This document shows positions 29,201 to 64,000 of a stretch of DNA of 64,000 nt, piece after piece. Origin of the DNA: Balanoglossus misakiensis (taxonomy: Eukaryota > Animalia > Hemichordata); contig CM082581.2 in assembly GCA_040954595.2 (NCBI GenBank), positions 13,589,921 through 13,653,920 of the forward strand, in the 5' to 3' direction. How positions within the stretch are numbered: the first letter of the stretch is position 1; every line of letters begins with the position of its first letter. Made by a program: the position numbers and the translations under genes. Under the pieces are notes generated by a model. That model was not told where the DNA came from, ran no database searches, and saw nothing but the letters and a program-made list of their open reading frames with translations.

Positions 29201-32200
29201 TTGATTCGGACTGGTGCCAATAACCGGTCAAGCGAACCGATCTTGCACGAACCTTGCAGTATTAATGGACCCGGTACTGTATGTGGATGTCAATTCAATG
29301 TTTAAAAACCGCCGCGACTGCCATGTGCAAGCGGGGGTGGCCATTTTGTTATGGTTCAAGCATGTTCACCATCTTTGTAGGAGACATTTCATTTACACAC
29401 TTTTTTTATTTATTTCAGGGATCCCATGGATGCCATGATAATTGCAAGACAGTGTGATAGATGTCCCGTCCGGAGATTACTGCACGGCATGGGGAGGTAA
29501 GAATTGTGGGAAAGGAAATTGAAGCATTGACGGAGACAATACATAAGACATGTGGGGGTGAGGTGTGTTTGTCCACAATATTCAGGCGCTGTCGGTTTAA
29601 TTTATTACAATTATGAGCTTATATGGATACAACCACGTTGCCAAATGGAGTGAAATTCCAGACAACTATACAGAATTCGCATGATGTACCATCTGCGAAT
29701 GAACAGCAATTGGCGTACTAGGGGGTGTTCATGCTTTTTTCATGTTCATGAATAATTATAGACATTCATTTCTACATTGCTTGTTTTGCAGATGCAAAGA
29801 GCAGATGGTATCCAGCAACCAATATATTATTTAGAAATTTTACCGAAATGAAAATTGTATTTCCACGAATGTTTACCGAGCTGATGCAAAGCTATGATGT
29901 AAATGTTTCCGCTTTTGTTTATGGTTTTCAAAACTTGGAAATTAAAATATTCAATAAACTAGATTAAAATGAAATACTTGTGTCTGTGTCATTGTATTAA
30001 TACCCCAACACTGCACTGCCTTGATGTTGAAATAATTGAAACAGGTAAGGTCAAAGGTCGGCCCATAAAATTTGTAGCAAACGCGAACTCTCAGGCGTCA
30101 GGATTCCTCCCATTATAGATAGTGACATGTGCAAAGTCCAAATAAGGTGAGGAGTCGTCGCAATTTGAGGAAACTAATTATGTTCCCGTAATTTGTCATA
30201 GCAACTGAGACCTTGTTCTTTGCTTCCTACTAACGCTCAGAAATTTCAAAAGTAGGCGAAAGATCACCTGTAAACTTAAAAACAAATTCTGGAAGTTTGA
30301 CCTGTTTTCTAAATTTGCTAAATGTTCAACATGTCAAAAGTAGCAACAAATCTAAAGTCTGTACCCTTGCTGAACTTTTCGGTTTAATTTATTACAATTA
30401 TGAGCTTATATGGATACAACCACGTTGCCAAATGGAGTGAAATTCCAGACAACTATACAGAATTCGCATGATGTACCATCTGCGAATGAACAGCAATTGG
30501 CGTACTAGGGGGTGTTCATGCTTTTTTCATGTTCATGAATAATTATAGACATTCATTTCTACATTGCTTGTTTTGCAGATGCAAAGAGCAGATGGTATCC
30601 AGCAACCAATATATTATTTAGAAATTTTACCCAAATGAAAATTGTATTTCCACGAATGTTTACCAAGCTGGTGCAAAGCTATGATGTAAAATGTTTCCTC
30701 TTTTGTTTATGGTTTTCAAAACTTGGAAATTAAAATATTCAATGAACTAGATTAAAATGAAATACTTGTGTCTGTGTCATTGTATTAATACCCCAACACA
30801 ACCCCAACACAATTTAGTTGATACTTGTAAGATATAAATCGCCAAAACTAAACATGCAAAGTGATTACTAAATTTGCATTCGGTTTCCGTGTCCTCCAAA
30901 GTTTAGATATAGCAATACCAGAGTATGAACGCCACTTCAAAAATAAAATTGTTCTTGACTTGATAGTTAATCAGGTTCCCCTCTTACCCCGCAATGCATC
31001 CAAGTGTCTGAGCTCCTATTCCTAATTAGTGATGTCAATAGGGAGGGGAGGGGGGAAACGTTGGTTATCTTTAAACCTATCGTATATGACTGCTTAATAA
31101 AAAACAATTTTGACCAGAACGAGCCCCCATACATATCAATCAGTCCAATAAATTAACCATATGTGCAATCGATGAATGCAAACTTACATTTCCAACAGAA
31201 GGATACGGTAGTCACGATTCAACCCTAAAATAGTGCCCATATCTTCATCACTCAACTTAAAATCGAAGATCTGCAGGAAAAAAACAGACTTAGTACTTAA
31301 TTACATAAAGAATTATATACAAATAATTGTCAAAAAGTGACCACTTCCCGACTTTGCGAGGTGACACCATTAAGAAAACCGTACCGCATAAGTAAAATAC
31401 GTCGCCGAATAATTTTCTTGAAAAGTTCAACATCTACTAATTTAGGGTTAGGGTTAGGGTTGATTTTAATCAGATTGCCTTATTCTCTACTTTACCTCAA
31501 AGTTTGCTTTAATCCTTTCAGGAGTGACACTCTTTGGTATCACAACCACTTTCCGCTGAACGTGGAATCGCAGCAATATATGTGCTACCGATTTCTTGTG
31601 CCTTTCCGCTAACGCCTTCAGCGTTGGCTCCTCTAACAAGTTAGGATCATCTGGTTTTGGTTTAAAAGGCCTGAAAGGTCACATACCGATTGTGGTAGAC
31701 TAGCGGGTAGGCAAGGGTAGGAGGTATTGAGAGAGGGCCATTCAGTTGAGTTGTTTTTCTAATCTCCCGGCTATTTAATTTCCAAGAGGATCACAATGAT
31801 AACCAAAACCTTTACTTACGGCTCTCGGTCAGGTGACCCAAATGGGCTATACGCCGTCATCACAATATTTTTAGATTTGCAGTATTCCAGTAATTTATCT
31901 TGGGTTAGACATGGGTGACATTCAACCTGAAACAGGAATACTATAGCTCAGGAAAATCATCAAAAATCGCCGATTTTTCGACTTTTCCAAATCTCGAAAT
32001 TCGTCGATTTTTGAAGAAATCATGGGTTATAGCTCAGGAAAATCGTCAAAAATCGCCGATTTTTCGACTTTTCCGAACTTTCGAAATTCGTCGACTTTTG
32101 AAGAAATCATGGGTTATAGCTCAGGAAAATCGTCAAAAATCGCCGATTTTTCGACTTTTCCGAACTTTCGAAATTCGTCGATTTTTGAAGAAATCATGGG

Positions 32201-35200
32201 TTATAGCTCAGGAAAATCGTCAAAAATCGCCGATTTTTCGACTTTTCCGAACTTTCGAAATTCGTCGATTTTTGAAGAAATCATGGGTTATAGCTCAGGA
32301 AAATCGTCAAAAATCGCCGATTTTTCGACTTTTCCGAACTTTCGAAATTCGTCGATTTTTGAAGAAATCATGGGTTATAGCTCAGGAAAATCGTCAAAAA
32401 TCGCCGATTTTTCGACTTTTCCGAACTTTCGAAATTCGTCGATTTTTGAAGAAATCAAGGGTTATAGCTCAGGAAAATCATCAAAAATCGCCGATTTTTC
32501 GACTTTTCCAAATCTCGAAATTTCGCCGATTTTTGAAGAAATCATGGGTTATAGCTCAGGAAAATCATCAAAAATCGACGATTTTTCGACTTTTCCAAAT
32601 CTCGAAATTTCGCCGATTTTTGAAAAAATCATGGGTTATAGCTCAGGAAAATCGTCAAAAATCGCCGATTTTTTGACTTTTCCGAACTTTCGAAATTCGT
32701 CGATTTTTGAAGAAATCATGGGTTATAGCTCAGGAAAATCGTCAAAAATCGCCGAATTTTCGACTTTTCCGAACTTTCGAAATTTCGCCGATTTTTGAAA
32801 AAATCATGGGTTATAGCTCAGGAAAATCGTCAAAAATCGCCGATTTTTTGACTTTTCCGAACTTTCGAAATTCGTCGATTTTTGAAGAAATCATGGGTTA
32901 TAGCTCAGGAAAATCGTCAAAAATCGCCGAATTTTCGACTTTTCCGAACTTTCGAAATTCGTCGATTTTTGAAGAAATCATGGGTTATAGCTCAGGAAAA
33001 TCGTCAAAAATCGCCGAATTTTCGACTTTTCCGAACTTTCGAAATTCATCGATTTTTGAAGAAATCATGGGTTATAGCTCAGGAAAATCGTCAAAAATCG
33101 CCGACTTTTCGACTTTTCCGAACTTTCGAAATTCGTCGATTTTTGAAGAAATCATGGGTTATAGCTCAGGAAAATCGTCAAAAATCGCCGAATTTTCGAC
33201 TTTTCCGAACTTTCGAAATTCGTCGATTTTTGAAGAAATCATGGGTTATAGCTCAGGAAAATCGTCAAAAATCGCCGATTTTTCGACTTTTCCGAACTTT
33301 CGAAATTCGTCGATTTTTGAAGAAATCATGGGTTATAGCTCAGGAAAATCGTCAAAAATCGCCGATTTTTCGACTTTTCCGAACTTTCGAAATTCGTCGA
33401 TTTTTGAAGAAATCATGGGTTATAGCTCAGGAAAATCGTCAAAAATCGCCGATTTTTCGACTTTTCCGAACTTTCGAAATTCGTCGATTTTTGAAGAAAT
33501 CATTGGTTATAGCTCAGGAAAATCGTCAAAAATCGCCGATTTTTCGACTTTTCCGAACTTTCGAAATTCGTCGATTTTTGAAGAAATCATGGGTTATAGC
33601 TCAGGAAAATCGTCAAAAATCGCCGAATTTTCGACTTTTCCGAACTTTCGAAATTCGTCGATTTTTGAAGAAATCATGGGTTATAGCTCAGGAAAATCGT
33701 CAAAAATCGCCGAATTTTCGACTTTTCCGAACTTTCGAAATTCGTCGATTTTTGAAGAAATCATGGGTTATAGCTCAGGAAAATCGTCAAAAATCGCCGA
33801 TTTTTCGACTTTTCCGAACTTTCGAAATTCGTCGATTTTTGAAGAAATCATGGGTTATAGCTCAGGAAAATCGTCAAAAATCGCCGATTTTTCGACTTTT
33901 CCGAACTTTCGAAATTCGTCGATTTTTGAAGAAATCATGGGTTATAGCTCAGGAAAATCGTCAAAAATCGCCGAATTTTCGACTTTTCCGAACTTTCGAA
34001 ATTCGTCGATTTTTGAAGAAATCATGGGTTATAGCTCAGGAAAATCGTCAAAAATCGCCGATTTTTCGACTTTTCCGAACTTTCGAAATTCGTCGATTTT
34101 TGAAGAAATCATGGGTTATAGCTCAGGAAAATCGTCAAAAATCGCCGATTTTTCGACTTTTCCGAACTTTCGAAATTCGTCGATTTTTGAAGAAATCATG
34201 GGTTATAGCTCAGGAAAATCGTCAAAAATCGCCGATTTTTCGACTTTTCCGAACTTTCGAAATTCGTCGATTTTTGAAGAAATCATGGGTTATAGCTCAG
34301 GAAAATCGTCAAAAATCGCCGAATTTTCGACTTTTCCGAACTTTCGAAATTCGTCGATTTTTGAAGAAATCATGGGTTATAGCTCAGGAAAATCGTCAAA
34401 AATCGCCGAATTTTCGACTTTTCCGAACTTTCGAAATTCGTCGATTTTTGAAGAAATCATGGGTTATAGCTCAGGAAAATCGTCAAAAATCGCCGAATTT
34501 TCGACTTTTCCGAACTTTCGAAATTCGTCGATTTTTGAAGAAATCATGGGTTATAGCTCAGGAAAATCGTCAAAAATCGCCGAATTTTCGACTTTTCCGA
34601 ACTTTCGAAATTCGTCGATTTTTGAAGAAATCATGGGTTATAGCTCAGGAAAATCGTCAAAAATCGCCGAATTTTCGACTTTTCCGAACTTTCGAAATTC
34701 GTCGATTTTTGAAGAAATCATGGGTTATAGCTCAGGAAAATCGTCAAAAATCGCCGATTTTTCGACTTTTCCGAACTTTCGAAATTCGTCGATTTTTGAA
34801 GAAATCATGGGTTATAGCTCAGGAAAATCGTCAAAAATCGCCGATTTTTCGACTTTTCCGAACTTTCGAAATTCGTCGATTTTTGAAGAAATCATGGGTT
34901 ATAGCTCAGGAAAATCGTCAAAAATCGCCGATTTTTCGACTTTTCCGAACTTTCGAAATTCGTCGATTTTTGAAGAAATCATGGGTTATAGCTCAGGAAA
35001 ATCGTCAAAAATCGCCGAATTTTCGACTTTTCCGAACTTTCGAAATTCGTCGATTTTTGAAGAAATCATGGGTTATAGCTCAGGAAAATCGTCAAAAATC
35101 GCCGAATTTTCGACTTTTCCGAACTTTCGAAATTCGTCGATTTTTGAAGAAATCATGGGTTATAGCTCAGGAAAATCGTCAAAAATCGCCGAATTTTCGA

Positions 35201-38200
35201 CTTTTCCGAACTTTCGAAATTCGTCGATTTTTGAAGAAATCATGGGTTATAGCTCAGGAAAATCGTCAAAAATCGCCGAATTTTCGACTTTTCCGAACTT
35301 TCGAAATTCGTCGATTTTTGAAGAAATCATGGGTTATAGCTCAGGAAAATCGTCAAAAATCGCCGAATTTTCGACTTTTCCGAACTTTCGAAATTCGTCG
35401 ATTTTTGAAGAAATCATGGGTTATAGCTCAGGAAAATCGTCAAAAATCGCCGAATTTTCGACTTTTCCGAACTTTCGAAATTCGTCGATTTTTGAAGAAA
35501 TCATGGGTTATAGCTCAGGAAAATCGTCAAAAATCGCCGAATTTTCGACTTTTCCGAACTTTCGAAATTCGTCGATTTTTGAAGAAATCATGGGTTATAG
35601 CTCAGGAAAATCGTCAAAAATCGCCGAATTTTCGACTTTTCCGAACTTTCGAAATTCGTCGATTTTTGAAGAAATCATGGGTTATAGCTCAGGAAAATCG
35701 TCAAAAATCGCCGAATTTTCGACTTTTCCGAACTTTCGAAATTCGTCGATTTTTGAAGAAATCATGGGTTATAGCTCAGGAAAATCGTCAAAAATCGCCG
35801 ATTTTTCGACTTTTCCGAACTTTCGAAATTCGTCGATTTTTGAAGAAATCATGGGTTATAGCTCAGGAAAATCGTCAAAAATCGCCGAATTTTCGACTTT
35901 TCCGAACTTTCGAAATTCGTCGATTTTTGAAGAAATCATGGGTTATAGCTCAGGAAAATCGTCAAAAATCGCCGAATTTTCGACTTTTCCGAACTTTCGA
36001 AATTCGTCGATTTTTGAAGAAATCATGGGTTATAGCTCAGGAAAATCGTCAAAAATCGCCGAATTTTCGACTTTTCCGAACTTTCGAAATTCGTCGATTT
36101 TTGAAGAAATCATGGGTTATAGCTCAGGAAAATCGTCAAAAATCGCCGATTTTTCGACTTTTCCGAACTTTCGAAATTCGTCGATTTTTGAAGAAATCAT
36201 GGGTTATAGCTCAGGAAAATCGTCAAAAATCGCCGATTTTTCGACTTTTCCGAACTTTCGAAATTCGTCGATTTTTGAAGAAATCATGGGTTATAGCTCA
36301 GGAAAATCGTCAAAAATCGCCGATTTTTCGACTTTTCCTAACTTTCGAAATTCGTCGATTTTTGAAGAAATCATGGGTTATAGCTCAGGAAAATCGTCAA
36401 AAATCGCCGATTTTTCGACTTTTCCGAACTTTCGAAATTCGTCGATTTTTGAAGAAATCATGGGTTATAGCTCAGGAAAATCGTCAAAAATCGCCGATTT
36501 TTCGACTTTTCCGAACTTTCGAAATTCGTCGATTTTTGAAGAAATCATGGGTTATAGCTCAGGAAAATCGTCAAAAATCGCCGATTTTTCGACTTTTCCG
36601 AACTTTCGAAATTCGTCGATTTTTGAAGAAATCATGGGTTATAGCTCAGGAAAATCGTCAAAAATCGCCGAATTTTCGACTTTTCCGAACTTTCGAAATT
36701 CGTCGATTTTTGAAGAAATCATGGGTTATAGCTCAGGAAAATCGTCAAAAATCGCCGATTTTTCGACTTTTCCGAACTTTCGAAATTCGTCGATTTTTGA
36801 AGAAATCATGGGTTATAGCTCAGGAAAATCGTCAAAAATCGCCGATTTTTCGACTTTTCCGAACTTTCGAAATTCGTCGATTTTTGAAGAAATCATGGGT
36901 TATAGCTCAGGAAAATCGTCAAAAATTGCCGAATTTTCGACTTTTCCGAACTTTCGAAATTCGTCGATTTTTGAAGAAATCATGGGTTATAGCTCAGGAA
37001 AATCGTCAAAAATCGCCGAATTTTCGACTTTTCCGAACTTTCGAAATTCGTCGATTTTTGAAGAAATCATGGGTTATAGCTCAGGAAAATCGTCAAAAAT
37101 CGCCGAATTTTCGACTTTTCCGAACTTTCGAAATTCGTCGATTTTTGAAGAAATCATGGGTTATAGCTCAGGAAAATCGTCAAAAATCGCCGAATTTTCG
37201 ACTTTTTCGAACTTTCGAAATTCGTCGATTTTTGAAGAAATCATGGGTTATAGCTCAGGAAAATCGTCAAAAATCGCCGAATTTTCGACTTTTCCGAACT
37301 TTCGAAATTCGTCGATTTTTGAAGAAATCATGGGTTATAGCTCAGGAAAATCGTCAAAAATCGCCGATTTTTCGACTTTTCCGAACTTTCGAAATTCGTC
37401 GATTTTTGAAGAAATCATGGGTTATAGCTCAGGAAAATCGTCAAAAATCGCCGAATTTTCGACTTTTCCGAACTTTCGAAATTCGTCGATTTTTGAAGAA
37501 ATCATGGGTTATAGCTCAGGAAAATCGTCAAAAATCGCCGATTTTTCGACTTTTCCGAACTTTCGAAATTCGTCGATTTTTGAAGAAATCATGGGTTATA
37601 GCTCAGGAAAATCGTCAAAAATCGCCGATTTTTCGACTTTTCCGAACTTTCGAAATTCGTCGATTTTTGAAGAAATCATGGGTTATAGCTCAGGAAAATC
37701 GTCAAAAATCGCCGAATTTTCGACTTTTCCGAACTTTCGAAATTCGTCGATTTTTGAAGAAATCATGGGTTATAGCTCAGGAAAATCGTCAAAAATCGCC
37801 GAATTTTCGACTTTTCCGAACTTTCGAAATTCGTCGATTTTTGAAGAAATCATGGGTTATAGCTCAGGAAAATCGTCAAAAATCGCCGAATTTTCGACTT
37901 TTCCGAACTTTCGAAATTCGTCGATTTTTGAAGAAATCATGGGTTATAGCTCAGGAAAATCGTCAAAAATCGCCGAATTTTCGACTTTTCCGAACTTTCG
38001 AAATTCGTCGATTTTTGAAGAAATCATGGGTTATAGCTCAGGAAAATCGTCAAAAATCGCCGAATTTTCGACTTTTCCGAACTTTCGAAATTCGTCGATT
38101 TTTGAAGAAATCATGGGTTATAGCTCAGGAAAATCGTCAAAAATCGCCGAATTTTCGACTTTTCCGAACTTTCGAAATTCGTCGATTTTTGAAGAAATCA

Positions 38201-41200
38201 TGGGTTATAGCTCAGGAAAATCGTCAAAAATCGCCGAATTTTCGACTTTTCCGAACTTTCGAAATTCGTCGATTTTTGAAGAAATCATGGGTTATAGCTC
38301 AGGAAAATCGTCAAAAATCGCCGAATTTTCGACTTTTCCGAACTTTCGAAATTCGTCGATTTTTGAAGAAATCATGGGTTATAGCTCAGGAAAATCGTCA
38401 AAAATCGCTGAATTTTCGACTTTTCCGAACTTTCGAAATTCGTCGATTTTTGAAGAAATCATGGGTTATAGCTCAGGAAAATCGTCAAAAATCGCCGATT
38501 TTTCGACTTTTCCGAACTTTCGAAATTCGTCGATTTTTGAAGAAATCATGGGTTATAGCTCAGGAAAATCGTCAAAAATCGCCGATTTTTCGACTTTTCC
38601 GAACTTTCGAAATTCGTCGATTTTTGAAGAAATCATGGGTTATAGCTCAGGAAAATCGTCAAAAATCGCCGATTTTTCGACTTTTCCGAACTTTCGAAAT
38701 TCGTCGATTTTTGAAGAAATCATGGGTTATAGCTCAGGAAAATCGTCAAAAATCGCCGATTTTTCGACTTTTCCGAACTTTCGAAATTCGTCGATTTTTG
38801 AAGAAATCATGGGTTATAGCTCAGGAAAATCGTCAAAAATCGCCGATTTTTCGACTTTTCCGAACTTTCGAAATTCGTCGATTTTTGAAGAAATCATGGG
38901 TTATACATGTAGCTCAGGAAAATCGTCAAAAATCGCCGATTTTTCGACTTTTCCGAACTTTCGAAATTCGTCGATTTTTGAAGAAATCATGGGTTATACA
39001 TGTAGCTCAGGAAAATCGTCAAAAATCGCCGATTTTTCGACTTTTCCGAACTTTCGAAATTCGTCGATTTTTGAAGAAATCATGGGTTATAGCTCAGGAA
39101 AATCGTCAAAAATCGCCGATTTTTCGACTTTTCCGAACTTTCGAAATTCGTCGATTTTTGAAGAAATCATGGGTTATAGCTCAGGAAAATCGTCAAAAAT
39201 CGCCGATTTTTCGACTTTTCCGAACTTTCGAAATTCGTCGATTTTTGAAGAAATCATGGGTTATAGCTCAGGAAAATCGTCAAAAATCGCCGATTTTTCG
39301 ACTTTTCCGAACTTTCGAAATTCGTCGATTTTTGAAGAAATCATGGGTTATAGCTCAGGAAAATCGTCAAAAATCGCCGATTTTTCGACTTTTCCTAACT
39401 TTCGAAATTCGTCGATTTTTGAAGAAATCATGGGTTATAGCTCAGGAAAATCGTCAAAAATCGCCGATTTTTCGACTTTTCCGAACTTTCGAAATTCGTC
39501 GATTTTTGAAGAAATCATGGGTTATAGCTCAGGAAAATCGTCAAAAATCGCCGATTTTTCGACTTTTCCGAACTTTCGAAATTCGTCGATTTTTGAAGAA
39601 ATCATGGGTTATAGCTCAGGAAAATCGTCAAAAATCGCCGATTTTTCGACTTTTCCGAACTTTCGAAATTCGTCGATTTTTGAAGAAATCATGGGTTATA
39701 GCTCAGGAAAATCGTCAAAAATCGCCGATTTTTCGACTTTTCCGAACTTTCGAAATTCGTCGATTTTTGAAGAAATCATGGGTTATAGCTCAGGAAAATC
39801 GTCAAAAATCGCCGAATTTTCGACTTTTCCGAACTTTCGAAATTCGTCGATTTTTGAAGAAATCATGGGTTATAGCTCAGGAAAATCGTCAAAAATCGCC
39901 GATTTTTCGACTTTTCCGAACTTTCGAAATTCGTCGATTTTTGAAGAAATCATGGGTTATAGCTCAGGAAAATCGTCAAAAATCGCCGATTTTTCGACTT
40001 TTCCGAACTTTCGAAATTCGTCGATTTTTGAAGAAATCATGGGTTATAGCTCAGGAAAATCGTCAAAAATCGCCGAATTTTCGACTTTTCCGAACTTTCG
40101 AAATTCGTCGATTTTTGAAGAAATCATGGGTTATAGCTCAGGAAAATCGTCAAAAATCGCCGAATTTTCGACTTTTCCGAACTTTCGAAATTCGTCGATT
40201 TTTGAAGAAATCATGGGTTATAGCTCAGGAAAATCGTCAAAAATCGCCGAATTTTCGACTTTTCCGAACTTTCGAAATTCGTCGATTTTTGAAGAAATCA
40301 TGGGTTATAGCTCAGGAAAATCGTCAAAAATCGCCGAATTTTCGACTTTTCCGAACTTTCGAAATTCGTCGATTTTTGAAGAAATCATGGGTTATAGCTC
40401 AGGAAAATCGTCAAAAATCGCCGAATTTTCGACTTTTCCGAACTTTCGAAATTCGTCGATTTTTGAAGAAATCATGGGTTATAGCTCAGGAAAATCGTCA
40501 AAAATCGCCGAATTTTCGACTTTTCCGAACTTTCGAAATTCGTCGATTTTTGAAGAAATCATGGGTTATAGCTCAGGAAAATCGTCAAAAATCGCCGAAT
40601 TTTCGACTTTTCCGAACTTTCGAAATTCGTCGATTTTTGAAGAAATCATGGGTTATAGCTCAGGAAAATCGTCAAAAATCGCCGATTTTTCGACTTTTCC
40701 GAACTTTCGAAATTCGTCGATTTTTGAAGAAATCATGGGTTATAGCTCAGGAAAATCGTCAAAAATCGCCGATTTTTCGACTTTTCCGAACTTTCGAAAT
40801 TCGTCGATTTTTGAAGAAATCATGGGTTATAGCTCAGGAAAATCGTCAAAAATCGCCGATTTTTCGACTTTTCCGAACTTTCGAAATTCGTCGATTTTTG
40901 AAGAAATCATGGGTTATAGCTCAGGAAAATCGTCAAAAATCGCCGATTTTCCGACTTTTCCGAACTTTCGAAATTCGTCGATTTTTGAAGAAATCATGGG
41001 TTATAGCTCAGGAAAATCGTCAAAAATCGCCGAATTTTCGACTTTTCCGAACTTTCGAAATTCGTCGATTTTTGAAGAAATCATGGGTTATAGCTCAGGA
41101 AAATCGTCAAAAATCGCCGAATTTTCGACTTTTCCGAACTTTCGAAATTCGTCGATTTTTGAAGAAATCATGGGTTATAGCTCAGGAAAATCGTCAAAAA

Positions 41201-47200: not shown

Positions 47201-50200
47201 AAAATCGCCGAATTTTCGACTTTTCCGAACTTTCGAAATTCGTCGATTTTTGAAGAAATCATGGGTTATAGCTCAGGAAAATCGTCAAAAATCGCCGAAT
47301 TTTCGACTTTTCCGAACTTTCGAAATTCGTCGATTTTTGAAGAAATCATGGGTTATAGCTCAGGAAAATCGTCAAAAATCGCCGAATTTTCGACTTTTCC
47401 GAACTTTCGAAATTCGTCGATTTTTGAAGAAATCATGGGTTATAGCTCAGGAAAATCGTCAAAAATCGCCGAATTTTCGACTTTTCCGAACTTTCGAAAT
47501 TCGTCGATTTTTGAAGAAATCATGGGTTATAGCTCAGGAAAATCGTCAAAAATCGCCGAATTTTCGACTTTTCCGAACTTTCGAAATTCGTCGATTTTTG
47601 AAGAAATCATGGGTTATAGCTCAGGAAAATCGTCAAAAATCGCCGATTTTTCGACTTTTCCGAACTTTCGAAATTCGTCGATTTTTGAAGAAATCATGGG
47701 TTATAGCTCAGGAAAATCGTAAAAAATCGCCGATTTTTCGACTTTTCCAAATCTCGAAATTTCGCCGATTTTTGAAGAATTCATGGGTTATAGCTTTGGA
47801 TAATCGTCAAAAATCGCCGAATTTTCGACTTTTCCAAATCTCGAAATTTCGCCGATTTTTGAAAAAATCATGGGTTATAGCTCAGGAAAATCGTCAAAAA
47901 TCGCCGATTTTTCGACTTTTCCAAATCTCGAAATTTCACCAATTTTTGAAAAAATCATGGGTTATAGCTCAGGAAAATCGTCAAAAATCGCCGATTTTTC
48001 GACTTTTCCGAATCTCGAAATTTCGCCGAAAAGAAACGTCGAAAAATCGGCGATTTTTGACGATTTTCCTGAGCTATAACCCATGATTTCTTCAAAAATC
48101 GACGAATTTCGAAAGTTCGGAAAAGTCGAAAAATCGGCGATTTTTGACGATTTTCCTGAGCTATAACCCATGATTTTTTCAAAAATCGGCGAAATTTCGA
48201 GATTTGGAAAAGTCGAAAAATCGTCGATTTTTGATGATTTTCCTGAGCTATAACCCATGATTTTTTCAAAAATCGGCGAAATTTCGAGATTTGGAAAAGT
48301 CGAAAAATCGGCGATTTTTGATGATTTTCCTGAGCTATAACCCATGATTTCTTCAAAAATAGACGAATTTCGAAAGTTCGGAAAAGTCGAAAAATCGGCG
48401 ATTTTTGACGACTTTCCTGAGCTATAACCCATGATTTCTTCAAAAATCGACGAATTTCGAAAGTTCGGAAAAGTCGAAAAATCGGCGATTTTTGACGATT
48501 TTCCTGAGCTATAACCCATGATTTTTTCAAAAATCGGCGAAATTTCGAGATTTGGAAAAGTCGAAAAATCGGCGATTTTTGATGATTTTCCTGAGCTATA
48601 ACCCATGATTTTTTTAAAAATCGGCGAAATTTCGAGATTTGGAAAAGTCGAAAAATCGGCGATTTTTGATGATTTTCCTGAGCTATAACCCATGATTTCT
48701 TGAAAAATCGACGAATTTCGAAAGTTCGGAAAAGTCGAAAAATCGGCGATTTTTGACGATTTTCCTGAGCTATAACCCATGATTTTTTCAAAAATCGGCG
48801 AAATTTCGAGATTTGGAAAAGTCGAAAAATCGTCGATTTTTGACGATTTTCCTGAGCTATAACCCATGATTTCTTCAAAAATCGGCGAAATTTCGAGATT
48901 TGGAAAAGTCGAAAAATCGGCGATTTTTGATGATTTTCCTGAGCTATAACCCATGATTTCTTCAAAAATCGACGAATTTCGAAAGTTCGGAAAAGTCGAA
49001 AAATCGGCGATTTTTGACGATTTTCCTGAGTTATAACCCATGATTATTTCAAAAATCGGCGAAATTTCGAGATTTGGAAAAGTCGAAAAATCGGCGATTT
49101 TTGACGATTTTCCTGAGCTATAACCCATGATTTCTTCAAAAATCGACGAATTTCGAAAGTTCGGAAAAGTCGAAAAATCGTCGATTTTTGATGATTTTCC
49201 TGAGCTATAACCCATGATTTTTTCAAAAATCGGCGAAATTTCGAGATTTGGAAAAGTCGAAAAATCGGCGATTTTTGACGATTTTCCTGAGCTATAACCC
49301 ATGATTTCTTCAAAAATAGACGAATTTCGAAAGTTCGGAAAAGTCGAAAAATCGGCGATTTTTGACGACTTTCCTGAGCTATAACCCATGATTTCTTCAA
49401 AAATCGACGAATTTCGAAAGTTCGGAAAAGTCGAAAAATCGGCGATGTTTGACGATTTTCCTGAGCTATAACCCATGATTTCTTCAAAAATCGACGAATT
49501 TCGAAAGTTCGGAAAAGTCGAAAAATCGGCGATTTTTGACGATTTTCCTGAGCTATAACCCATGATTTTTTCAAAAATCGGCGAAATTTCGAGATTTGGA
49601 AAAGTCGAAAAATCGGCGATTTTTGATGATTTTCCTGAGCTATAACCCATGATTTTTTTAAAAATCGGCGAAATTTCGAGATTTGGAAAAGTCGAAAAAT
49701 CGGCGATTTTTGATGATTTTCCTGAGCTATAACCCATGATTTCTTGAAAAATCGACGAATTTCGAAAGTTCGGAAAAGTCGAAAAATCGGCGATTTTTGA
49801 CGATTTTCCTGAGCTATAACCCATGATTTTTTCAAAAATCGGCGAAATTTCGAGATTTGGAAAAGTCGAAAAATCGTCGATTTTTGACGATTTTCCTGAG
49901 CTATAACCCATGATTTCTTCAAAAATCGGCGAAATTTCGAGATTTGGAAAAGTCGAAAAATCGGCGATTTTTGATGATTTTCCTGAGCTATAACCCATGA
50001 TTTCTTCAAAAATCGACGAATTTCGAAAGTTCGGAAAAGTCGAAAAATCGGCGATTTTTGACGATTTTCCTGAGTTATAACCCATGATTATTTCAAAAAT
50101 CGGCGAAATTTCGAGATTTGGAAAAGTCGAAAAATCGGCGATTTTTGACGATTTTCCTGAGCTATAACCCATGATTTCTTCAAAAATCGACGATTTTCGA

Positions 50201-53200
50201 AAGTTCGGAAAAGTCGAAAAATCGGCGATTTTGACGATTTTCCTGAGCTATAACCCATGATTTCTTCAAAAATCGACGAATTTCGAAAGTTCGGAAAAGT
50301 CGAAAAATCGGCGATTTTTGACGATTTTCCTGAGCTATAACCCATGATTTCTTCAAAAATCGACGAATTTCGAAATTTCGGAAAAGTCGAAAAATCGGCG
50401 ATTTTTGACGATTTTCCTGAGCTATAACCCATGATTTCTTGAAAAATTGGAGAAAATTTCGAGATTTGGAAAAGTCGAAAAATCGTCGATTTTTGATGAT
50501 TTTCCTGAGCTATAACCCATGATTTTTTCAAAAATCTGCGAAATTTCGAGATTTGGAAATGTCGAAAAATCGGCGATTTTTGACGATTTTCCTGAGCTAT
50601 ATCCCATGATTTCTTCAAAAATCGACGAATTTCGAAAGTTTGGAAAAGTCGAAAAATCGGCGATTTTTGACGATTTTCCTGAGCTATAACCCATGATTTC
50701 TTGAAAAATTGGAGAAAATTTCGAGATTTGGAAAAGTCGAAAAATCGTCGATTTTTGATGATTTTCCTGAGCTATAACCCATGATTTTTTCAAAAATCTG
50801 CGAAATTTCGAGATTTGGAAAAGTCGAAAAATCGGCGATTTTTGACGATTTTTCTGAGCTATAACCCATGATTTCTTCAAAAATCGACGAATTTCGAAAG
50901 TTCGGAAAAGTCGAAAAATCGGCGATTTTTGACGATTTTCCTGAGCTATAACCCATGATTTCTTCAAAAATCGACGAATTTCGAAATTTCGGAAAAGTCG
51001 AAAAATCGGCGATTTTTGACGATTTTCCTGAGCTATAACCCATGATTTCTTCAAAAATCGACGAATTTCGAAAGTTCGGAAAAGTCGAAAAATCGGCGAT
51101 TTTTGACGATTTTCCTGAGCTATAACCCATGATTTCTTCAAAAATCGACGAATTTCGAAAGTTCGGAAAAGTCGAAAAATCGGCGATTTTTGACGATTTT
51201 CCTGAGCTATAACCCATGATTTCTTCAAAAATCGACGAATTTCGAAAGTTCGGAAAAGTCGAAAAATCGGCGATTTTTGACGATTTTCCTGAGCTATAAC
51301 CCATGATTTCTTCAAAAATCGACGAATTTCGAAAGTTCGGAAAAGTCGAAAAATCGGCGATTTTTGACGATTTTCCTGAGCTATAACCCATGATTTCTTC
51401 AAAAATCGACGAATTTCGAAAGTTTGGAAAAGTCGAAAAATCGGCGATTTTTGACGATTTTCCTGAGCTATAACCCATGATTTCTTGAAAAATTGGAGAA
51501 AATTTCGAGATTTGGAAAAGTCGAAAAATCGTCGATTTTTGATGATTTTCCTGAGCTATAACCCATGATTTTTTCAAAAATCGGCGAAATTTCGAGATTT
51601 CGAAAAGTCGAAAAATCGGCGATTTTTGACGATTTTCCTGAGCTATAACCCATGATTTCTTCAAAAATTGACGAATTTCGAAAGTTCGGAAAAGTCGAAA
51701 ATTCGGCGATTTTTGACGATTTTCCTGAGCTATAACCCATGATTTCTTCAAAAATCGACGAATTTCGAAAGTTCGGAAAAGTCGAAAAATCGGCGATTTT
51801 TGACGATTTTCCTGAGTTATAACCCATGATTTCTTCAAAAATCGACGAATTTCGAAAGTTCGGAAAAGTCGAAAAATCGGCGATTTTTGACGATTTTCCT
51901 GAGCTATAACCCATGATTTCTTCAAAAATCGACGAATTTCGAAAGTTCGGAAAAGTCGAAAATTCGGCGATTTTTGACGATTTTCCTGAGCTATAACCCA
52001 TGATTTCTTCAAAAATCGACGAATTTCGAAAGTTCGGAAAAGTCGAAAAATCGGCGATTTTTGACGATTTTCTTGAGCTATAACCCATGATTTCTTCAAA
52101 AATCGACGAATTTCGAAAGTTCGGAAAAGTCGAAAAATCGGCGATTTTTGACGATTTTCCTGAGCTATAACCCATGATTTCTTCAAAAATCGACGAATTT
52201 CGAGATTTGGAAAAGTCGAAAAATCGGCGATTTTTGACGATTTTCCTGAGCTATAACCCATGATTTCTTGAAAAATTGGAGAAAATTTCGAGATTTAGAA
52301 AAGTCGAAAAATCGTCGATTTTTGATGATTTTCCTGAGCTATAACCCATGATTTTTTCAAAAATCGGCGAAATTTCGAGATTTGGAAAAGTCGAAAAATC
52401 GTCGATTTTTGACGATTTTCCTGAGCTATAACCCATGATTTCTTCAAAAATCGACGAATTTCGAAAGTTCGGAAAAGTCGAAAAATCGGCGATTTTTGAC
52501 GATTTTCCTGAGCTATAACCCATGATTTCTTCAAAAATCGACGAATTTCGAAAGTTCGGAAAAGTCGAAAAATCGGCGATTTTTGACGATTTTCCTTAGC
52601 TATAACCCATGATTTCTTCAAAAATCGACGAATTTCGAAAGTTCGGAAAAGTCGAAAAATCGGCGATTTTTGACGATTTTCCTGAGCTATAACCCATGAT
52701 TTCTTCAAAAATCGACGAATTTCGAAAGTTCGGAAAAGTCGAAAAATCGGCGATTTTTAACGATTTTCCTGAGCTATAACCCATGATTTCTTCAAAAATC
52801 GACGAATTTCGAAAGTTCGGAAAAGTCGAAAAATCGGCGATTTTTGACGATTTTCCTTAGCTATAACCCATGATTTCTTCAAAAATCGACGAATTTCGAA
52901 AGTTCGGAAAAGTCGAAAAATCGGCGATTTTTGACGATTTTCCTGAGCTATAACCCATGATTTCTTCAAAAATCGACGAATTTCGAAAGTTCGGAAAAGT
53001 CGAAAAATCGACGATTTTTGACGATTTTCCTGAGCTATAACCCATGATTTCTTCAAAAATCGACGAATTTCGAAAGTTCGGAAAAGTCGAAAAATCGGCG
53101 ATTTTTGACGATTTTCCTGAGCTATAACCCATGATTTCTTCAAAAATCGACGAATTTCGAAAGTTCGGAAAAGTCGAAAAATCGGCGATTTTTGACGATT

Positions 53201-56200
53201 TTCCTGAGCTATAACCCATGATTTCTTCAAAAATCGACGAATTTCGAAAGTTCGGAAAAGTCGAAAAATCGGCGATTTTTGACGATTTTCCTGAGCTATA
53301 ACCCATGATTTCTTCAAAAATCGACGAATTTCGAAAGTTTGGAAAAGTCGAAAAATCGGCGATTTTTGACGATTTTCCTGAGCTATAACCCATGATTTCT
53401 TGAAAAATTGGAGAAAATTTCGAGATTTGGAAAAGTCGAAAAATCGTCGATTTTTGATGATTTTCCTGAGCTATAACCCATGATTTTTTCAAAAATCGGC
53501 GAAATTTCGAGATTTGGAAAATTCGAAAAATCGGCGATTTTTGACGATTTTCCTGAGCTATAACCCATGATTTTTTCAAAAATCGGCGAAATTTCGAGAT
53601 TGGAAAAGTCGAAAAATCGGCGATTTTTGACGATTTTCCTGAGCTATAACCCATGATTTCTTCAAAAATCGACGAATTTCGAAAGTTCGGAAAAGTCGAA
53701 AAATCGGCGATTTTTGACGATTTTCCTGAGCTATAACCCATGATTTCTTCAAAAATCGACGAATTTCGAAAGTTCGGAAAAGTCGAAAAATCGGCGATTT
53801 TTGACGATTTTCCTGAGTTATAACCCATGATTTCTTCAAAAATCGACGAATTTCGAAAGTTCGGAAAAGTCGAAAAATCGGCGATTTTTGACGATTTTCC
53901 TGAGCTATAACCCATGATTTCTTCAAAAATCGACGAATTTCGAAAGTTCGGAAAAGTCGAAAATTCGGCGATTTTTGACGATTTTCCTGAGCTATAACCC
54001 ATGATTTCTTCAAAAATCGACGAATTTCGAAAGTTCGGAAAAGTCGAAAAATCGGCGATTTTTGACGATTTTCCTTAGCTATAACCCATGATTTCTTCAA
54101 AAATCGACGAATTTCGAAAGTTCGGAAAAGTCGAAAAATCGGCGATTTTTGACGATTTTCCTGAGCTATAACCCATGATTTCTTCAAAAATCGACGAATT
54201 TCGAAAGTTCGGAAAAGTCGAAAAATCGGCGATTTTTAACGATTTTCCTGAGCTATAACCCATGATTTCTTCAAAAATCGACGAATTTCGAAAGTTCGGA
54301 AAAGTCGAAAAATCGGCGATTTTTGACGATTTTCCTTAGCTATAACCCATGATTTCTTCAAAAATCGACGAATTTCGAAAGTTCGGAAAAGTCGAAAAAT
54401 CGGCGATTTTTGACGATTTTCCTGAGCTATAACCCATGATTTCTTCAAAAATCGACGAATTTCGAAAGTTCGGAAAAGTCGAAAAATCGACGATTTTTGA
54501 CGATTTTCCTGAGCTATAACCCATGATTTCTTCAAAAATCGACGAATTTCGAAAGTTCGGAAAAGTCGAAAAATCGGCGATTTTTGACGATTTTCCTGAG
54601 CTATAACCCATGATTTCTTCAAAAATCGACGAATTTCGAAAGTTCGGAAAAGTCGAAAAATCGGCGATTTTTGACGATTTTCCTGAGCTATAACCCATGA
54701 TTTCTTCAAAAATCGACGAATTTCGAAAGTTTGGAAAAGTCGAAAAATCGGCGATTTTTGACGATTTTCCTGAGCTATAACCCATGATTTCTTGAAAAAT
54801 TGGAGAAAATTTCGAGATTTGGAAAAGTCGAAAAATCGTCGATTTTTGATGATTTTCCTGAGCTATAACCCATGATTTTTTCAAAAATCGGCGAAATTTC
54901 GAGATTTGGAAAATTCGAAAAATCGGCGATTTTTGACGATTTTCCTGAGCTATAACCCATGATTTTTTCAAAAATCGGCGAAATTTCGAGATTTGGAAAA
55001 GTCGAAAAATCGGCGATTTTTGACGATTTTCCTGAGCTATAACCCATGATTTCTTCAAAAATCGACGAATTTCGAAAGTTCGGAAAAGTCGAAAAATCGG
55101 CGATTTTTGACGATTTTCCTGAGCTATAACCCATGATTTCTTCAAAAATCGACGAATTTCGAAAGTTCGGAAAAGTCGAAAAATCGGCGATTTTTGACGA
55201 TTTTCCTGAGTTATAACCCATGATTTCTTCAAAAATCGACGAATTTCGAAAGTTCGGAAAAGTCGAAAAATCGGCGATTTTTGACGATTTTCCTGAGCTA
55301 TAACCCATGATTTCTTCAAAAATCGACGAATTTCGAAAGTTCGGAAAAGTCGAAAATTCGGCGATTTTTGACGATTTTCCTGAGCTATAACCCATGATTT
55401 CTTCAAAAATCGACGAATTTCGAAAGTTCGGAAAAGTCGAAAAATCGGCGATTTTTGACGATTTTCTTGAGCTATAACCCACGATTTCTTCAAAAATCGA
55501 CGAATTTCGAAAGTTCGGAAAAGTCGAAAAATCGGCGATTTTTGACGATTTTCCTGAGCTATAACCCATGATTTCTTCAAAAATCGACGAATTTCGAGAT
55601 TTGGAAAAGTCGAAAAATCGGCGATTTTTGACGATTTTCCTGAGCTATAACCCATGATTTCTTGAAAAATTGGAGAAAATTTCGAGATTTAGAAAAGTCG
55701 AAAAATCGTCGATTTTTGATGATTTTCCTGAGGTATATAACCCATGATTTTTTCAAAAATCGGCGAAATTTCGAGATTTGGAAAAGTCGAAAAATCGTCG
55801 ATTTTTGACGATTTTCCTGAGCTATAACCCATGATTTCTTCAAAAATCGACGAATTTCGAAAGTTCGGAAAAGTCGAAAAATCGGCGATTTTTGACGATT
55901 TTCCTGAGCTATAACCCATGATTTCTTCAAAAATCGACGAATTTCGAAAGTTCGGAAAAGTCGAAAAATCGGCGATTTTTGACGATTTTCCTTAGCTATA
56001 ACCCATGATTTCTTCAAAAATCGACGAATTTCGAAAGTTCGGAAAAGTCGAAAAATCGGCGATTTTTGACGATTTTCCTGAGCTATAACCCATGATTTCT
56101 TCAAAAATCGACGAATTTCGAAAGTTCGGAAAAGTCGAAAAATCGGCGATTTTTGACGATTTTCCTGAGCTATAACCCATGATTTCTTCAAAAATCGACG

Positions 56201-59200
56201 ATTTTCGAAAGTTCGGAAAAGTCGAAAAATCGGCGATTTTTGACAATTTTCCTGAGCTATAACCCATGATTTTTTCAAAAATCGGCGAAATTTCGAGATT
56301 TGGAAAAGTCGAAAAATCGTCGATTTTTGACGATTTTCCTGAGCTATAACCCATGATTTCTTCAAAAATCGACGAATTTCGAAAGTTCGGAAAAGTCGAA
56401 AAATCGGCGATTTTTGACGATTTTCCTGAGCTATAACCCATGATTTCTTCAAAAATCGACGAATTTCGAAAGTTCGGAAAAGTCGAAAAATCGGCGATTT
56501 TAGACGATTTTCCTGAGCTATAACCCATGATTTTTTCAAAAATCGGCGAAATTTCGAGATTTGGAAAAGTCGAAAAATCGGCGATTTTTGATGATTTTCC
56601 TGAGCTATAACCCATGATTTTTTCAAAAATCGGCGAAATTTCGAGATTTGGAAAAGTCGAAAAATCGTCGATTTTTGATGATTTTCCTGAGCTATAACCC
56701 ATGATTTCTTCAAAATTCGACGAATTTCGAAAGTTCGGAAAAGTCGAAAAATCGGCGATTTTCGACGATTTTCCTGAGCTATAACCCATGATTTCTTGAA
56801 AAATTGGCGAAATTTCGAGATTTGGAAAAGTCGAAAAATCGGCGATTTTTGATGATTTTCCTGAGCTATAACCCATGATTTTTTCAAAAATCGGCGAAAA
56901 ATTTCGAGATTTGGAAAAGTCGAAAAATCGGCGATTTTTGATGATTTTCCTGAGCTATAACCCATGATTTTTTCAAAAAACGGCGAAATTTCGAGATTTG
57001 GAAAAGTCGAAAAATCGGCGATTTTTGATGATTTTCCTGAGCTATAACCTATGATTTTTTCAAAAATCGGCGAAATTTCGAGATTTGGAAAAGTCGAAAA
57101 ATCGGCGATTTTTGATGATTTTCCTGAGCTATAACCCATGATTTTTTCAAAAATCGGCGAAATTTCGAGATTTGGAAAAGTCGAAAAATCGGCGATTTTT
57201 GATGATTTTCCTGAGCTATAACCCATGATTTTTTCAAAAAACGGCGAAATTTCGAGATTTGGAAAAGTCGAAAAATCGGCGATTTTTGATGATTTTCCTG
57301 AGCTATAACCTATGATTTTTTCAAAAATCGGCGAAATTTCGAGATTTGGAAAAGTCGAAAAATCGGCGATTTTTGATGATTTTCCTGAGCTATAACCCAT
57401 GATTTTTTCAAAAATCGGCGAAATTTCGAGATTTGGAAAAGTCGAAAAATAGGCTATTTTTGATGATTTTCCTGAGCTATAACCCATGATTTTTTCAAAA
57501 ATCGGCGAAATTTCGAGATTTGGAAAAGTCGAAAAATCGGCGATTTTTGATGATTTTCCTGAGCTATAACCCATGATTTTTTCAAAAATCGGCGAAATTT
57601 CGAGATTTGGAAAAGTCGAAAAATCGGCGATTTTGATGATTTTCCTGAGCTATAACCCATGATTTTTTCAAAAATCGGCGAAATTTCGAGATTTGGGAAA
57701 GTCGAAAATTCGGCGATTTTTGATGATTTTCCTGAGCTATAACCCATGATATTTTCAAAAATCGGCGAAATTTCGAGATTTGGAAAAGTCGAAAAATCCG
57801 CGATTTTTGATGATTTTCCTGAGCTAAAACCCATGATTTCTTCAAAAATCGGCCCAAACACCAAATCTCAGGAGGTCGAGAAATCGTCGTTTTTCGACAG
57901 TTTTCATGAGCTATAGCCCATGAAAAGTGTCAAAACCGGCCAAAACACCAAATCTCAGGAGGTCGAGAAATCGTCGTTTTTCGACAGTTTTCATGAGCTA
58001 TAGCCCATGAAAAGTGTCAAAACCGGCCAAAACACCAAATATCAGAAGGGTGTGAATTCGTCGTTTTTCGACAGCTTTCATGAGCTATAATTTATCTTAC
58101 CTGTAGGCTGGATACGGGGATTCTTGCAACGGCTAGAATTCTATCTATCTGATCGACGTTGAAGTTTGAAAGACCAATGGCATTGCACAGACCGTCATCA
58201 ACAAGCTTTTCCATTGCCTGTAGATAAGGTTTATCATTTATGAACTGAATGCGCCCTCTTGCTTCGAGAAAAAAAGCAGCAAGATTTTCACAAAACTGTC
58301 CGAATCCTTGCTTTGAGAAGCACTACAGCAAGGACGCGAGGTACAAAATAGCCGCGAAAAAAGTTTAGACATAAAGTCCATCGAGCACTATCGAGTGTAT
58401 TGGCCGGATAAAGGCTGAAAACCGTCTCTCTCGTACCTTCATGGTCAAACATACCTGCCACGTATCGACGAAATCCGTGTCAGCAATTATCAATTTTCCA
58501 TTCTTATCCGACGGTTGAAGTGCTTCCCCTCTCTGGAAATGATTAGTGATTATAAAGTGTAGCTCTGTTATGGGAACTTGGGATATGGTCGAATGATTTG
58601 TAACGCCGATATCTTCAATTGTTTCAGTTTCAAACTTATACCGAATTTGTGTGAATTAAAGGAATGTTTCATTCTCCATTGGTCATGTTTATCATACGTA
58701 GACTTACCCGATATGCCATCGGATAATGCATCAAGTACAAATCCAAAAAGTCTAACTGCAGATTCTTCAACGTTCTCTGACAAGCCTTCTTAACATCCTC
58801 AGGATGATGATCAGAACACCACAGCTAACAAAAATATGTGGTTATTATTCAAGCATGGGTTTTATTCAGCAAAGCGGTGAATCTATACCATCTAGATGGA
58901 AGGAAAGGCTCTCAGGCGACTAAATCTAAACAGTTTTGACAACATCATGAAACTCAGACAACTATAGCTCCCCGGTCATCTAAAAAAATCTGAAGAAAAT
59001 ATAATGTATATGTTGTATTTTCATAATCATTAGAAATTGACGACATACCTTGCTACAAATAAACAAATCATCTCGTTTAACAATTCCTTTGTTCATGGTT
59101 TCTATCAGTGCCAAACCAATTTCAGCTTCGTTCTCATAGACATGAGCACAGTCGATATGACGATAGCCAACTTCAATGGCATACTGCACTGCTTTTCCTA

Positions 59201-59450: not shown

Positions 59451-59816
59451 TGTAAGCGTTTGCTTCGATGTCACTACTATTAATTATGTGGGAAAATTAC
59501 AGCTATTAATATATGTATATATCGTATCATGTTTTGACTTGATTTTTTTCTGGAAGACTACAATTTCTGTGGGGGGAGAACAAAGTTTGATGTGTGTAAA
59601 AAAAAGGAAGAGGAGTTCAGGAGCAACCATACCATTAAAAAAACATTTCAAACTCTGCATTTTTTTCCATGAATCTTTACTGATAACTCCATCAATGATT
59701 CAACAATAACAGTTTTAAAAAGTTTACAAAAAACATATCATCTTGATATTTTTCTTTACAAATAGACAAGTTTCTGGTATATTTTAAGTGAAGCATATCT
59801 GTTCAAAATCTTCATT

Positions 59817-59863
59817 TTATCTAATATAAAACTTATCTAATATAAAACTTATCTAATATAAAA
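59817..59863. repeat. 16-bp tandem repeat x3
   Basis: TTATCTAATATAAAAC repeated three times between the REC8 3' end and the AKR start. Confidence 0.85.
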
Positions 59864-63936: not shown

Positions 63937-64000
63937 CTGGAATAAACAAAATAAAAATTAGTATCATAAATTCAAACGAAAATGTCAAAATCGACCAAAA

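Follow-up and report, generated by a model that had tools for sequence, protein, structure and literature searches.

Foldback elements whose arms consist of tandem repeats seed satellites (PMC4079207), MITE-plus-array composites are on record (PMC12628747), and MITEs of about 100 bp occur as tandem arrays (PMC2872659). Tetris from Drosophila virilis (Dias et al. 2014, PMC4079207) is a non-coding, satellite-seeding element with inverted arms of variable-number tandem repeats. Its TIRs reach at most 1,735 bp and comprise flanking, outer and inner domains; the element further has a middle domain and target duplications of 8-10 bp. Hairpin-like tandem units of about 80-100 bp are found in Xenopus Xstir/Xmix and miDNA4 (PMC12628747, PMC9659126) and in coral CMITE (PMC2872659). 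Such MITE-derived satellites form composites of element end and array, with TTAA as a 4-bp A/T boundary word. For the coral CMITEs, TTAA duplications, CC[C/T]T ends and empty alleles are shown.

In terms of introns, two other systems are relevant. Fish (AC)m-(GT)n introns (Lin et al. 2016, PMC4691745) carry complementary repeats at both ends that could pair across the intron. These repeats are short, the introns are mostly short as well (example: a 170-nt bin), the repeats mask the branch point and pyrimidine tract, and minigenes have shown them to be necessary. The giant introns of the Drosophila Y (Fingerhut et al. 2024, PMC11207136) consist almost wholly of repeats within working genes. They range from hundreds of kb to Mb, and the text available describes their co-transcriptional splicing, not inverted arms.

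Here we describe intron 5 of an aldo-keto reductase (AKR) gene of the hemichordate Balanoglossus misakiensis. The window is a stretch of 64,000 nt (GCA_040954595.2, contig CM082581.2, positions 13,589,921-13,653,920 of the forward strand), and all coordinates refer to it. Like Tetris, the intron holds non-coding inverted arms of tandem repeats, but these are pure arrays of 10 and 16 kb around an 8-nt middle, with neither a flanking domain nor a long target duplication. It shares the unit size, the composite layout and a 4-bp A/T word (here TATA) with the MITE-derived satellites, a likeness of layout, and differs from them in having hundreds of units in two orientations within one intron. Like the fish introns, it has complementary repeats at both ends, its arms beginning 11 nt away from the donor and 15 nt away from the acceptor. 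Unlike them, it has an intact pyrimidine tract (9/12) and 70 near-equal pairing registers. Unlike the Y introns so described, it measures 26 kb and is large only relative to its neighbours. No published description of this geometry was found in the literature covered, which comprised mainly titles and abstract openings and few subscription papers. We class intron 5 as an extreme case of a kind already known.

Gene structure and transcription

The AKR gene has nine exons on the minus strand, giving 945 nt, or 314 amino acids plus a stop, with no internal stop. Exons 1 to 5 (58101..59450; residues 1-183) are located at 59450-59382 (69 nt), 59216-59049 (168 nt), 58824-58708 (117 nt), 58532-58455 (78 nt) and 58217-58101 (117 nt), and encode Asp45, Tyr50, Lys79 and His112, which we take to be the AKR catalytic tetrad. 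Exons 6 to 9 (26244..31926; residues 184-314) are located at 31926-31820 (107 nt), 31670-31496 (175 nt), 31270-31188 (83 nt) and 26274-26244 (31 nt), and include the IPKS motif at 263. Pfam PF00248 was matched by all five exons scanned (2, 3, 5, 6 and 7), in model order and with four above the curated cut-off. The product is 54.7% identical to protein P0003 over 307 amino acids. Of the 138 AKRs that cover residues 176-191, 131 show no gap at the joint between exons 5 and 6, SSLQ|VECHP, and the halves on either side of the array form one complete AKR, with gap 0 and overlap 0. Protein searches returned no hemichordate AKR orthologue.

The preliminary description of this DNA had presented the gene as intact, with its motifs preserved, its exons on one strand, in order and in phase, and six of its seven other introns short. 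All of this holds. Introns 1 to 8 measure 165, 224, 175, 237, 26174, 149, 225 and 4913 nt, and all are GT..AG. The exon 5/6 boundary and the exon sizes 168, 117, 78 and 107 follow the vertebrate AKR1B1 pattern. On this match, the creation of intron 5 by an element was rejected.

Three sequencing runs (X1, X2 and X3) come from one sample; none is registered as RNA, and X3 was judged RNA-like by its splicing, being spliced across AKR introns 3 and 4. One RNA contig from X3 is identical to the window over 58216-58099, after which its final 42 letters depart from the sequence of intron 5. A match ending at 58099 is predicted by exon 6 alone among exons 6-9, and by 12 of the 1,126 downstream AG sites. 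The RNA evidence for the joining of exons 5 and 6 is this one contig, at depth 2.6 and from one sample, and the partner exon is indicated by the endpoint of the match, not by junction letters. In this RNA-like run the AKR gene is transcribed, with splicing in its 5' half and use of the donor at 58101. Of the 58101-31926 junction that the preliminary description had put forward, the donor side is seen to leave the genome sequence, and the acceptor side fits exon 6 by that single endpoint.

At the DNA level, one contig of X1 covers 58011-58938, including the donor-side junction, with 0 differences, and X1 is possibly the source of the assembly. Summed contig depth in X1 is 469,256 at 57800-57906 and 2,845 at 58014-58120, against about 23 in the single-copy flank; these values are not copy numbers. 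By this depth the 87-bp repeat also occurs abundantly at other places in the genome. Run X2 has 14 listed differences from the window and lacks cover at about 58121-58150, a gap that proves nothing.

Extent and splice signals of intron 5

The 87-bp repeat occupies 31942-58089, which is 26,148 of the 26,174 nt of the intron (99.9%), as had been described. The same applies to the non-repeat remainder. It consists of 11 nt on the donor side (58090..58100, minus strand), with the near-consensus donor CAG|GTAAGATAAAT, and 15 nt on the acceptor side (31927..31941, minus strand), with the acceptor GTATTCCTGTTTCAG. The donor reads CAG|GTAAGA, and the acceptor has 9 pyrimidines in the 12 positions from -15 to -4, compared to 7-10 of 12 at the other introns of the gene. 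In strength, both splice sites equal the other sites of the gene.

Branch points usually lie about 18-40 nt from the acceptor. Besides the AG, the 15 non-repeat nucleotides on that side contain a single A (-13). A candidate branch point, CTGAG (31946..31951, minus strand; A at -22, position 31948), is found in the terminal repeat unit. From its sequence, the branch point likely lies inside this unit.

No strong decoy donors were found in the intron: GTAAG is absent beyond the real donor, as are GTGAG, GTATG, GTAAA and GTAAT. There are also 0 poly(A) signals (AATAAA or ATTAAA). AGGT occurs only twice in the 26 kb, in a weak context both times, and recursive splicing was rejected as a removal route on this count. 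With strong splice sites and a repeat free of strong decoy donors and poly(A) signals, splicing can be explained without structure. Positions 31000-33000 have 0 matches in Rfam.

Organization of the array

The array consists of two arms. The donor-side arm (48038..58089, minus strand) measures 10,052 bp, with 115 full units and a partial one, and the acceptor-side arm (31942..48029, plus strand) measures 16,088 bp, with 184 full units and a partial one. The orientation switches mid-unit at 48030..48037, through an 8-nt spacer, AAAGAAAC on the plus strand. The preliminary description had called the arms reverse complements. They are built from one unit in opposed orientation but are not mirror copies, at 16.1 and 10.1 kb and with a longest exact inverted match of 437 bp.

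Each unit is made of TATA and an 83-bp hairpin, an imperfect inverted repeat. The hairpins fold with the TATA outside, with z of -3.2, -3.6 and -3.7 in three unit/strand cases and -1.7 in the fourth. TATA begins 298 of 299 units and stands at both ends of the array; as a candidate target duplication between units and at the array ends, it coincides with unit sequence. Both outer ends start with TATAGCTCA in register, as TATA|GCTCA, an inverted terminal repeat that is exact over 9 bp. Ends placed at random would fall on the same base about 1 time in 87.

The two arms differ in age and make-up. The donor-side arm is heterogeneous, with 5.7% mean pairwise divergence, B-type units at 46 of 115 and local higher-order repeats. 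The acceptor-side arm is homogeneous, with 1.7% divergence and two variants making up 144 of its 184 units; its B-type units (6 of 184) are near its two ends only. B-type units also flank the orientation switch on both sides, and these older units are common to the outer ends and the centre of the array. About 2.7 divergent C-type 87-bp units make up the donor-side terminus (57845..58089, minus strand). They are 67-68% identical to the main unit and found on this side only. In the second of these C-type units, 10 of the 11 outermost bases at one end match the other end in inverted orientation, and this match is weaker in A and B types.

We found no target duplication of 8-10 bp: exact flank repeats do not exceed 4 bp at 10 boundary choices, and the best flank 8- and 9-mers have 3 mismatches each. 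A Mutator-type target duplication was rejected on these grounds. The flank repeats are only TA, AT or TATA, which is also unit sequence, so that duplication and unit are indistinguishable.

The array has no coding capacity, with periodic frames only and an 8-nt middle. Its long open frames were rejected as coding, being a periodicity artefact of 87 = 29 x 3, and no transposase is present with the array. The unit-boundary motif had 0 matches in metagenome and viral contigs, and the unit-start motif had 0 in prokaryote genomes. Three metagenome contigs matching the unit-start motif represent one locus, with a single match of 25-28 nt and no array, partner end or evident transposase, and were set aside as likely chance. 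In layout, the array corresponds to a foldback/MITE-derived satellite element, a point that the preliminary description had overlooked.

Predicted RNA structure

For the transcript of intron 5, pairing of the two arms into a duplex of about 10 kb is strongly predicted, as the preliminary description had proposed. The calculated energy is about -150 kcal/mol per unit, compared to -21 to -29 for local hairpins. The hairpin at the orientation switch gave -45.4 kcal/mol (z -6.9).

The end-to-end register was the best of 70, both by mismatches (546; mean 566, sd 6) and by summed duplex energy. Its advantage over the centre register is 95 of 14,900 kcal/mol (0.6%). When the first 8 units are shifted into the end register, 54 kcal/mol is gained; for the outer three units there is no gain (rank 65/70), and the three outermost donor-side units have 63%, 68% and 77% identity to their end-to-end partners. 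Cofolding the two 440-nt ends gave a structure paired to its base, with donor and acceptor free; this fold holds the ends only, with no competing registers. If zipping starts from the centre hairpin, 6,003 nt ahead of the acceptor would stay unpaired. The proposed spacing of about 30 nt between donor and acceptor belongs to one of the 70 registers, the best one, and is not supported as a default state.

Discussion

We consider it reasonably probable that intron 5 holds a putative non-autonomous foldback-type element that has overgrown into a satellite, and that the intron is removed by ordinary splicing through its two strong sites. Under this explanation, the starting point would have been a small hairpin (TATA + 83 bp), from which an element with the GCTCA end outward on both sides arose and inserted at a short A/T target within the pre-existing intron. 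Slippage and unequal exchange would then have expanded the arms independently, latest of all on the acceptor side. Deletions that halted at the splice signals likely removed most of the older intron, and as a result the branch point is now likely provided by the terminal unit. Long double-stranded RNA would be a by-product of the transcript. Several observations count against an element: the absence of a target duplication of 8-10 bp and of a transposase, the unequal array ends, with C-type units on one side only, and the parent intron of 28-30 nt implied by a clean insertion, compared to 149-237 nt in six of the seven others, so that extra deletions must be assumed. The first rank of the end-to-end register leaves some probability to a bridging stem, and the single RNA contig also weighs against this explanation.

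The unequal ends, the implied parent intron and the unclear target duplication suit a plain satellite, in which abundant monomers were patched in at break repair and expanded, with an inversion or template switch, and are tolerated by the gene. The unit is self-complementary and very abundant in the genome, and the mid-unit switch with its 8-nt spacer looks as if it came from end-joining or template switching. We regard this origin as rather unlikely, since both outer ends fall on one unit base, outside the hairpin of the unit, and older B-type units stand at both outer ends and the centre; a simple internal inversion would also invert flank or shift the register of the second end. An assembly artefact, in which AKR halves or opposed arrays were joined through satellite or a palindrome arose from a fold-back read, appears very improbable. 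Inverted repeats can bias long-read sequencing, an effect shown for simple satellites (bioRxiv 10.64898/2026.07.13.738322), and the length of the acceptor-side arm may be wrong given its homogeneity. A fold-back read was nonetheless rejected because the arms are not mirrored, their variant content differs, and edge-type units occur on both sides of the centre. The complete AKR across the array and the X1 contig over the donor-side junction, with the caveat on its source, also argue for a correct assembly.

In the remaining explanations, the RNA structure itself has a role. Accurate or efficient excision of the intron may require the arms to pair end to end, which would bring donor and acceptor within about 30 nt of each other. 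The fish introns are a precedent for such bridging (PMC4691745), and the best register, the energy gain of the first 8 units and the free splice sites in the cofold are consistent with it. We nonetheless judge this model to be unlikely. The splice sites are strong and unobscured, the energy advantage is slight and lost in the outer three units, centre-out zipping would keep the ends apart, the cofold excluded other registers, and a mirror order or sign of co-variation between the arms is absent. A need for the stem in splicing is unsupported. It is similarly unlikely that a selfish satellite element has taken over the working parts of an intron reduced to its splice signals, supplying both the branch point and an end-to-end duplex of about 10 kb, with the opposed orientation letting the 26-kb array persist in an expressed gene. 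If true, end-to-end bridging would be structure-assisted splicing far above the scale of the fish AC/GT introns.

With the foldback-derived satellite as the favoured reading, the array would capture a transition from MITE to foldback to satellite, in units of three ages standing side by side. The locus is an expressed single gene copy. Its potential double-stranded RNA is near-perfect over about 10 kb, and only 26 nt of the intron lie outside the repeat. Intron 5 offers a clean test of whether the spliceosome is helped, hindered or unaffected by long intronic duplexes, and a test of how animals avoid editing, silencing and cruciform instability at such loci.

The AKR gene and its intron 5

The aldo-keto reductase (AKR) gene, on the minus strand, is confirmed to be split by a satellite. 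When both flanks were read and the exons joined, every coordinate of the preliminary description proved correct, with exons 1-5 at 59450-58101, exons 6-9 at 31926-26244 and the repeat-filled intron 5 between them. The repeat spans 31942-58089, which is 26,148 of 26,174 nt and agrees with the 99.9% first claimed. The gene, also described as intact across the array, is so: nine exons bounded by GT..AG give a coding sequence of 945 nt that is free of internal stops and encodes 314 aa, and the SSLQ/VECHP joint is ungapped in 131 of the 138 AKRs that cover residues 176-191. Each of the five AKR exons scanned matches Pfam PF00248, and the matches follow the order of the model; that of exon 5 reaches profile position 161, and that of exon 6 takes up at 162. 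The closest relative among the fetched AKRs has 54.7% identity over 307 aa. The introns measure 165, 224, 175, 237, 26,174, 149, 225 and 4,913 nt; the position of intron 5 is presumably ancestral, on the exon sizes that we take vertebrate AKR1B1 to have.

Anatomy of the array

The acceptor-side arm (31942-48029) holds 184 full 87-bp units with 1.7% mean pairwise divergence, and 144 of these are two variants one base apart. In the donor-side arm (48038-58089) there are 115 full units with 5.7% divergence; 46 of them belong to an older B type, local higher-order repeats occur, and the arm is terminated by about 2.7 divergent C-type units with only 67-68% likeness to the main unit. In the longer, acceptor-side arm, B-type units are confined to the centre and near the outer end. 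At the centre, orientation flips mid-unit around an 8-nt spacer (48030-48037). The arms had been called reverse complements. They are indeed opposed, but they are not copies of each other: just 5 of 76 distinct unit variants are common to both and no exact inverted match exceeds 437 bp. This rules out one arm having been copied back on itself and argues for separate growth.

The outer ends of both arms start at the identical unit base, where TATAGCTCA forms a 9-bp exact inverted repeat. Units fold into hairpins from which TATA is left out (z -3.2, -3.6 and -3.7 for three cases and -1.7 for a fourth), the C-type unit has ends that agree at 10 of their first 11 bases, and TATA begins 298 of 299 units; the unit therefore resembles a MITE-like hairpin of 83 bp with a 4-bp A/T word attached.

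Two neighbouring 93-bp units (38902-39087) carry TACATGTA in place of TA at the unit boundary. Excision of Tc1/mariner elements leaves a footprint of similar form, which suggests that such an element may once have inserted at the boundary TA and then left. Furthermore, the repeat profile weakly matches intron 7 at 31325-31360 (E 0.004 in the window), close to a (CCCTAA)3 run. An older repeat subfamily, like those in the loose ends of run contigs, may have left this relic.

Predicted pairing and splicing

Long double-stranded RNA is predicted, since a perfect inter-arm unit duplex is computed at about -150 kcal/mol against -21 to -29 for local hairpins. The tandem arms, being of unequal length, allow 70 full registers (alignment offsets between the arms). 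The end-to-end register, on which the proposed end-paired stem depends, is the best of these, with 546 mismatches (mean 566, sd 6), because both outer ends hold B-type units. Its margin over the centre register is however 0.6% (-14,928 against -14,833 kcal/mol, as unit-by-unit duplex energies summed rather than a full fold), and for the outer three units alone it ranks 65 of 70. Because transcription reaches the donor arm before the acceptor arm, and the centre folds into a tight hairpin (z -6.9), outward zipping would consume the short arm, and by computation 6,003 nt ahead of the acceptor would stay unpaired. Shifting the first 8 units to the end register would gain 54 kcal/mol (summed duplex energies), so that juxtaposition of donor and acceptor would be reachable in principle, not the default.

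The donor (CAG/GTAAGA) is near consensus, and the acceptor has pyrimidines at 9 of 12 positions (7-10 in the other seven introns). Transcript-sense intron 5 contains no second GTAAG, no GTGAG, GTATG, GTAAA or GTAAT, no AATAAA or ATTAAA, and two AGGT. The 15 non-repeat nt on the acceptor side hold one A, at -13, so that the branch point probably falls within the terminal unit, with CTGAG (A at -22) as the candidate. Short exons, strong sites and an intron free of decoys, as here, suffice for ordinary exon definition.

Evidence from sequencing runs

Contigs of three runs from one sample (X1, X2 and X3) were compared with 57800-61000, the 5' half and donor side. In X1, DNA contig 4 covers 58011-58938 without difference, across the donor-side junction. 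Summed contig depth in X1, which is not copy number, is 469,256 over the repeat and about 23 on the flank, so the repeat has many copies elsewhere. X3 was presumed to be DNA, but its contigs omit introns 3 and 4 exactly and therefore derive from spliced RNA.

An X3 contig of 182 nt (record 21, depth 2.6), which alone accounts for X3 depth in its bin, matches 58216-58099 without difference before its final 42 letters depart from the intron. A stop at exactly 58099 is predicted for a join to exon 6, because exon 6 starts GTT and the intron GTA. For exons 7-9 the predicted stop is 58100 or 58101, and of the 1,126 AG sites downstream just 12 give 58099. A single contig thus lends indirect support to the expected 58101-31926 junction between exons 5 and 6. 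Among the X3 contigs in 57800-61000, none is listed with a joint into the array.

Neighbouring loci

Intron 8 (26275-31187) contains a 130-bp tandem (x4.5, 27958-28544), a 170-bp tandem (x2.5, 28761-29196) and a duplication of about 420 bp with copies 787 nt apart. Related acceptor-like segments on its plus strand (27416, 28773, 28945, 29115, 29755 and 30542) may represent exons duplicated within a nested antisense gene. Downstream of the AKR gene lie the mS26 mitochondrial ribosomal protein gene (24412-25552, minus strand) and an ABC transporter gene (about 6300-20500, plus strand; ABC_tran match), which we take to be of ABCA type. The first exon of mS26 had only three matches, Ptychodera flava (84% identity), Saccoglossus (65%) and Glandiceps (51%), which makes an enteropneust (acorn worm) the probable host. 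Exon-like frames occupy 60770-64000 (minus strand); the stretch ending them resembles what we take to be a kleisin (REC8/RAD21-like) C-terminus, and Pfam gave no match supporting kleisin for these frames.

Origin of the array

The most likely reading, somewhat better than even, is a putative overgrown foldback or MITE-derived satellite element tolerated within the intron. The likeness is in layout. Foldback elements have inverted arms built from tandem repeats and can seed satellites; in Tetris the TIRs reach 1,735 bp and the duplications 8-10 bp (PMC4079207). Other sources present Xstir and miDNA4 as MITE-array composites (PMC12628747), describe coral MITEs of about 100 bp in tandem arrays with TTAA (PMC2872659) and report that in Drosophila tandems can arise when an element inserts into its own target duplication (PMC5932611). 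The longest possible target duplication at the array boundary is TATA, with TA and AT as the alternatives, and all three words also belong to the unit sequence; on target duplication the array departs from Mutator. Had the element inserted cleanly, the parent intron would have measured only 28-30 nt; an older intron was probably trimmed instead by deletions halting at the splice signals.

A plain satellite plus inversion ranks second and is rather unlikely. Splicing that depends on the structure, as the preliminary description proposed, is doubtful enough to rank third: the end-to-end register and the gain over the first 8 units speak for it, but its narrow energy margin, the 6,003 nt ahead of the acceptor that zipping from the centre would leave unpaired, and splice sites strong enough for exon definition speak against it. 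In fish AC/GT introns the repeats obscure the pyrimidine tract and the need for pairing is shown (PMC4691745), whereas the tract of AKR intron 5 is pyrimidine-rich; from Drosophila Y introns (PMC11207136) this intron differs in scale. Misassembly is the least probable reading, as the X1 contig bridges the donor-side junction, although X1 may be the assembly's source, and the differing unit variants of the arms oppose an arm folded back on itself. As a whole, the earlier interpretation is partly supported. Our literature search found no description of this intron geometry or this 87-bp satellite.

Lastly, X2 differs from the window over 58855-60235 by 14 listed differences and a 16-bp repeat-unit deletion. 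As it is recorded as the same sample, a second haplotype is present in the data, and it could show a different intron 5.
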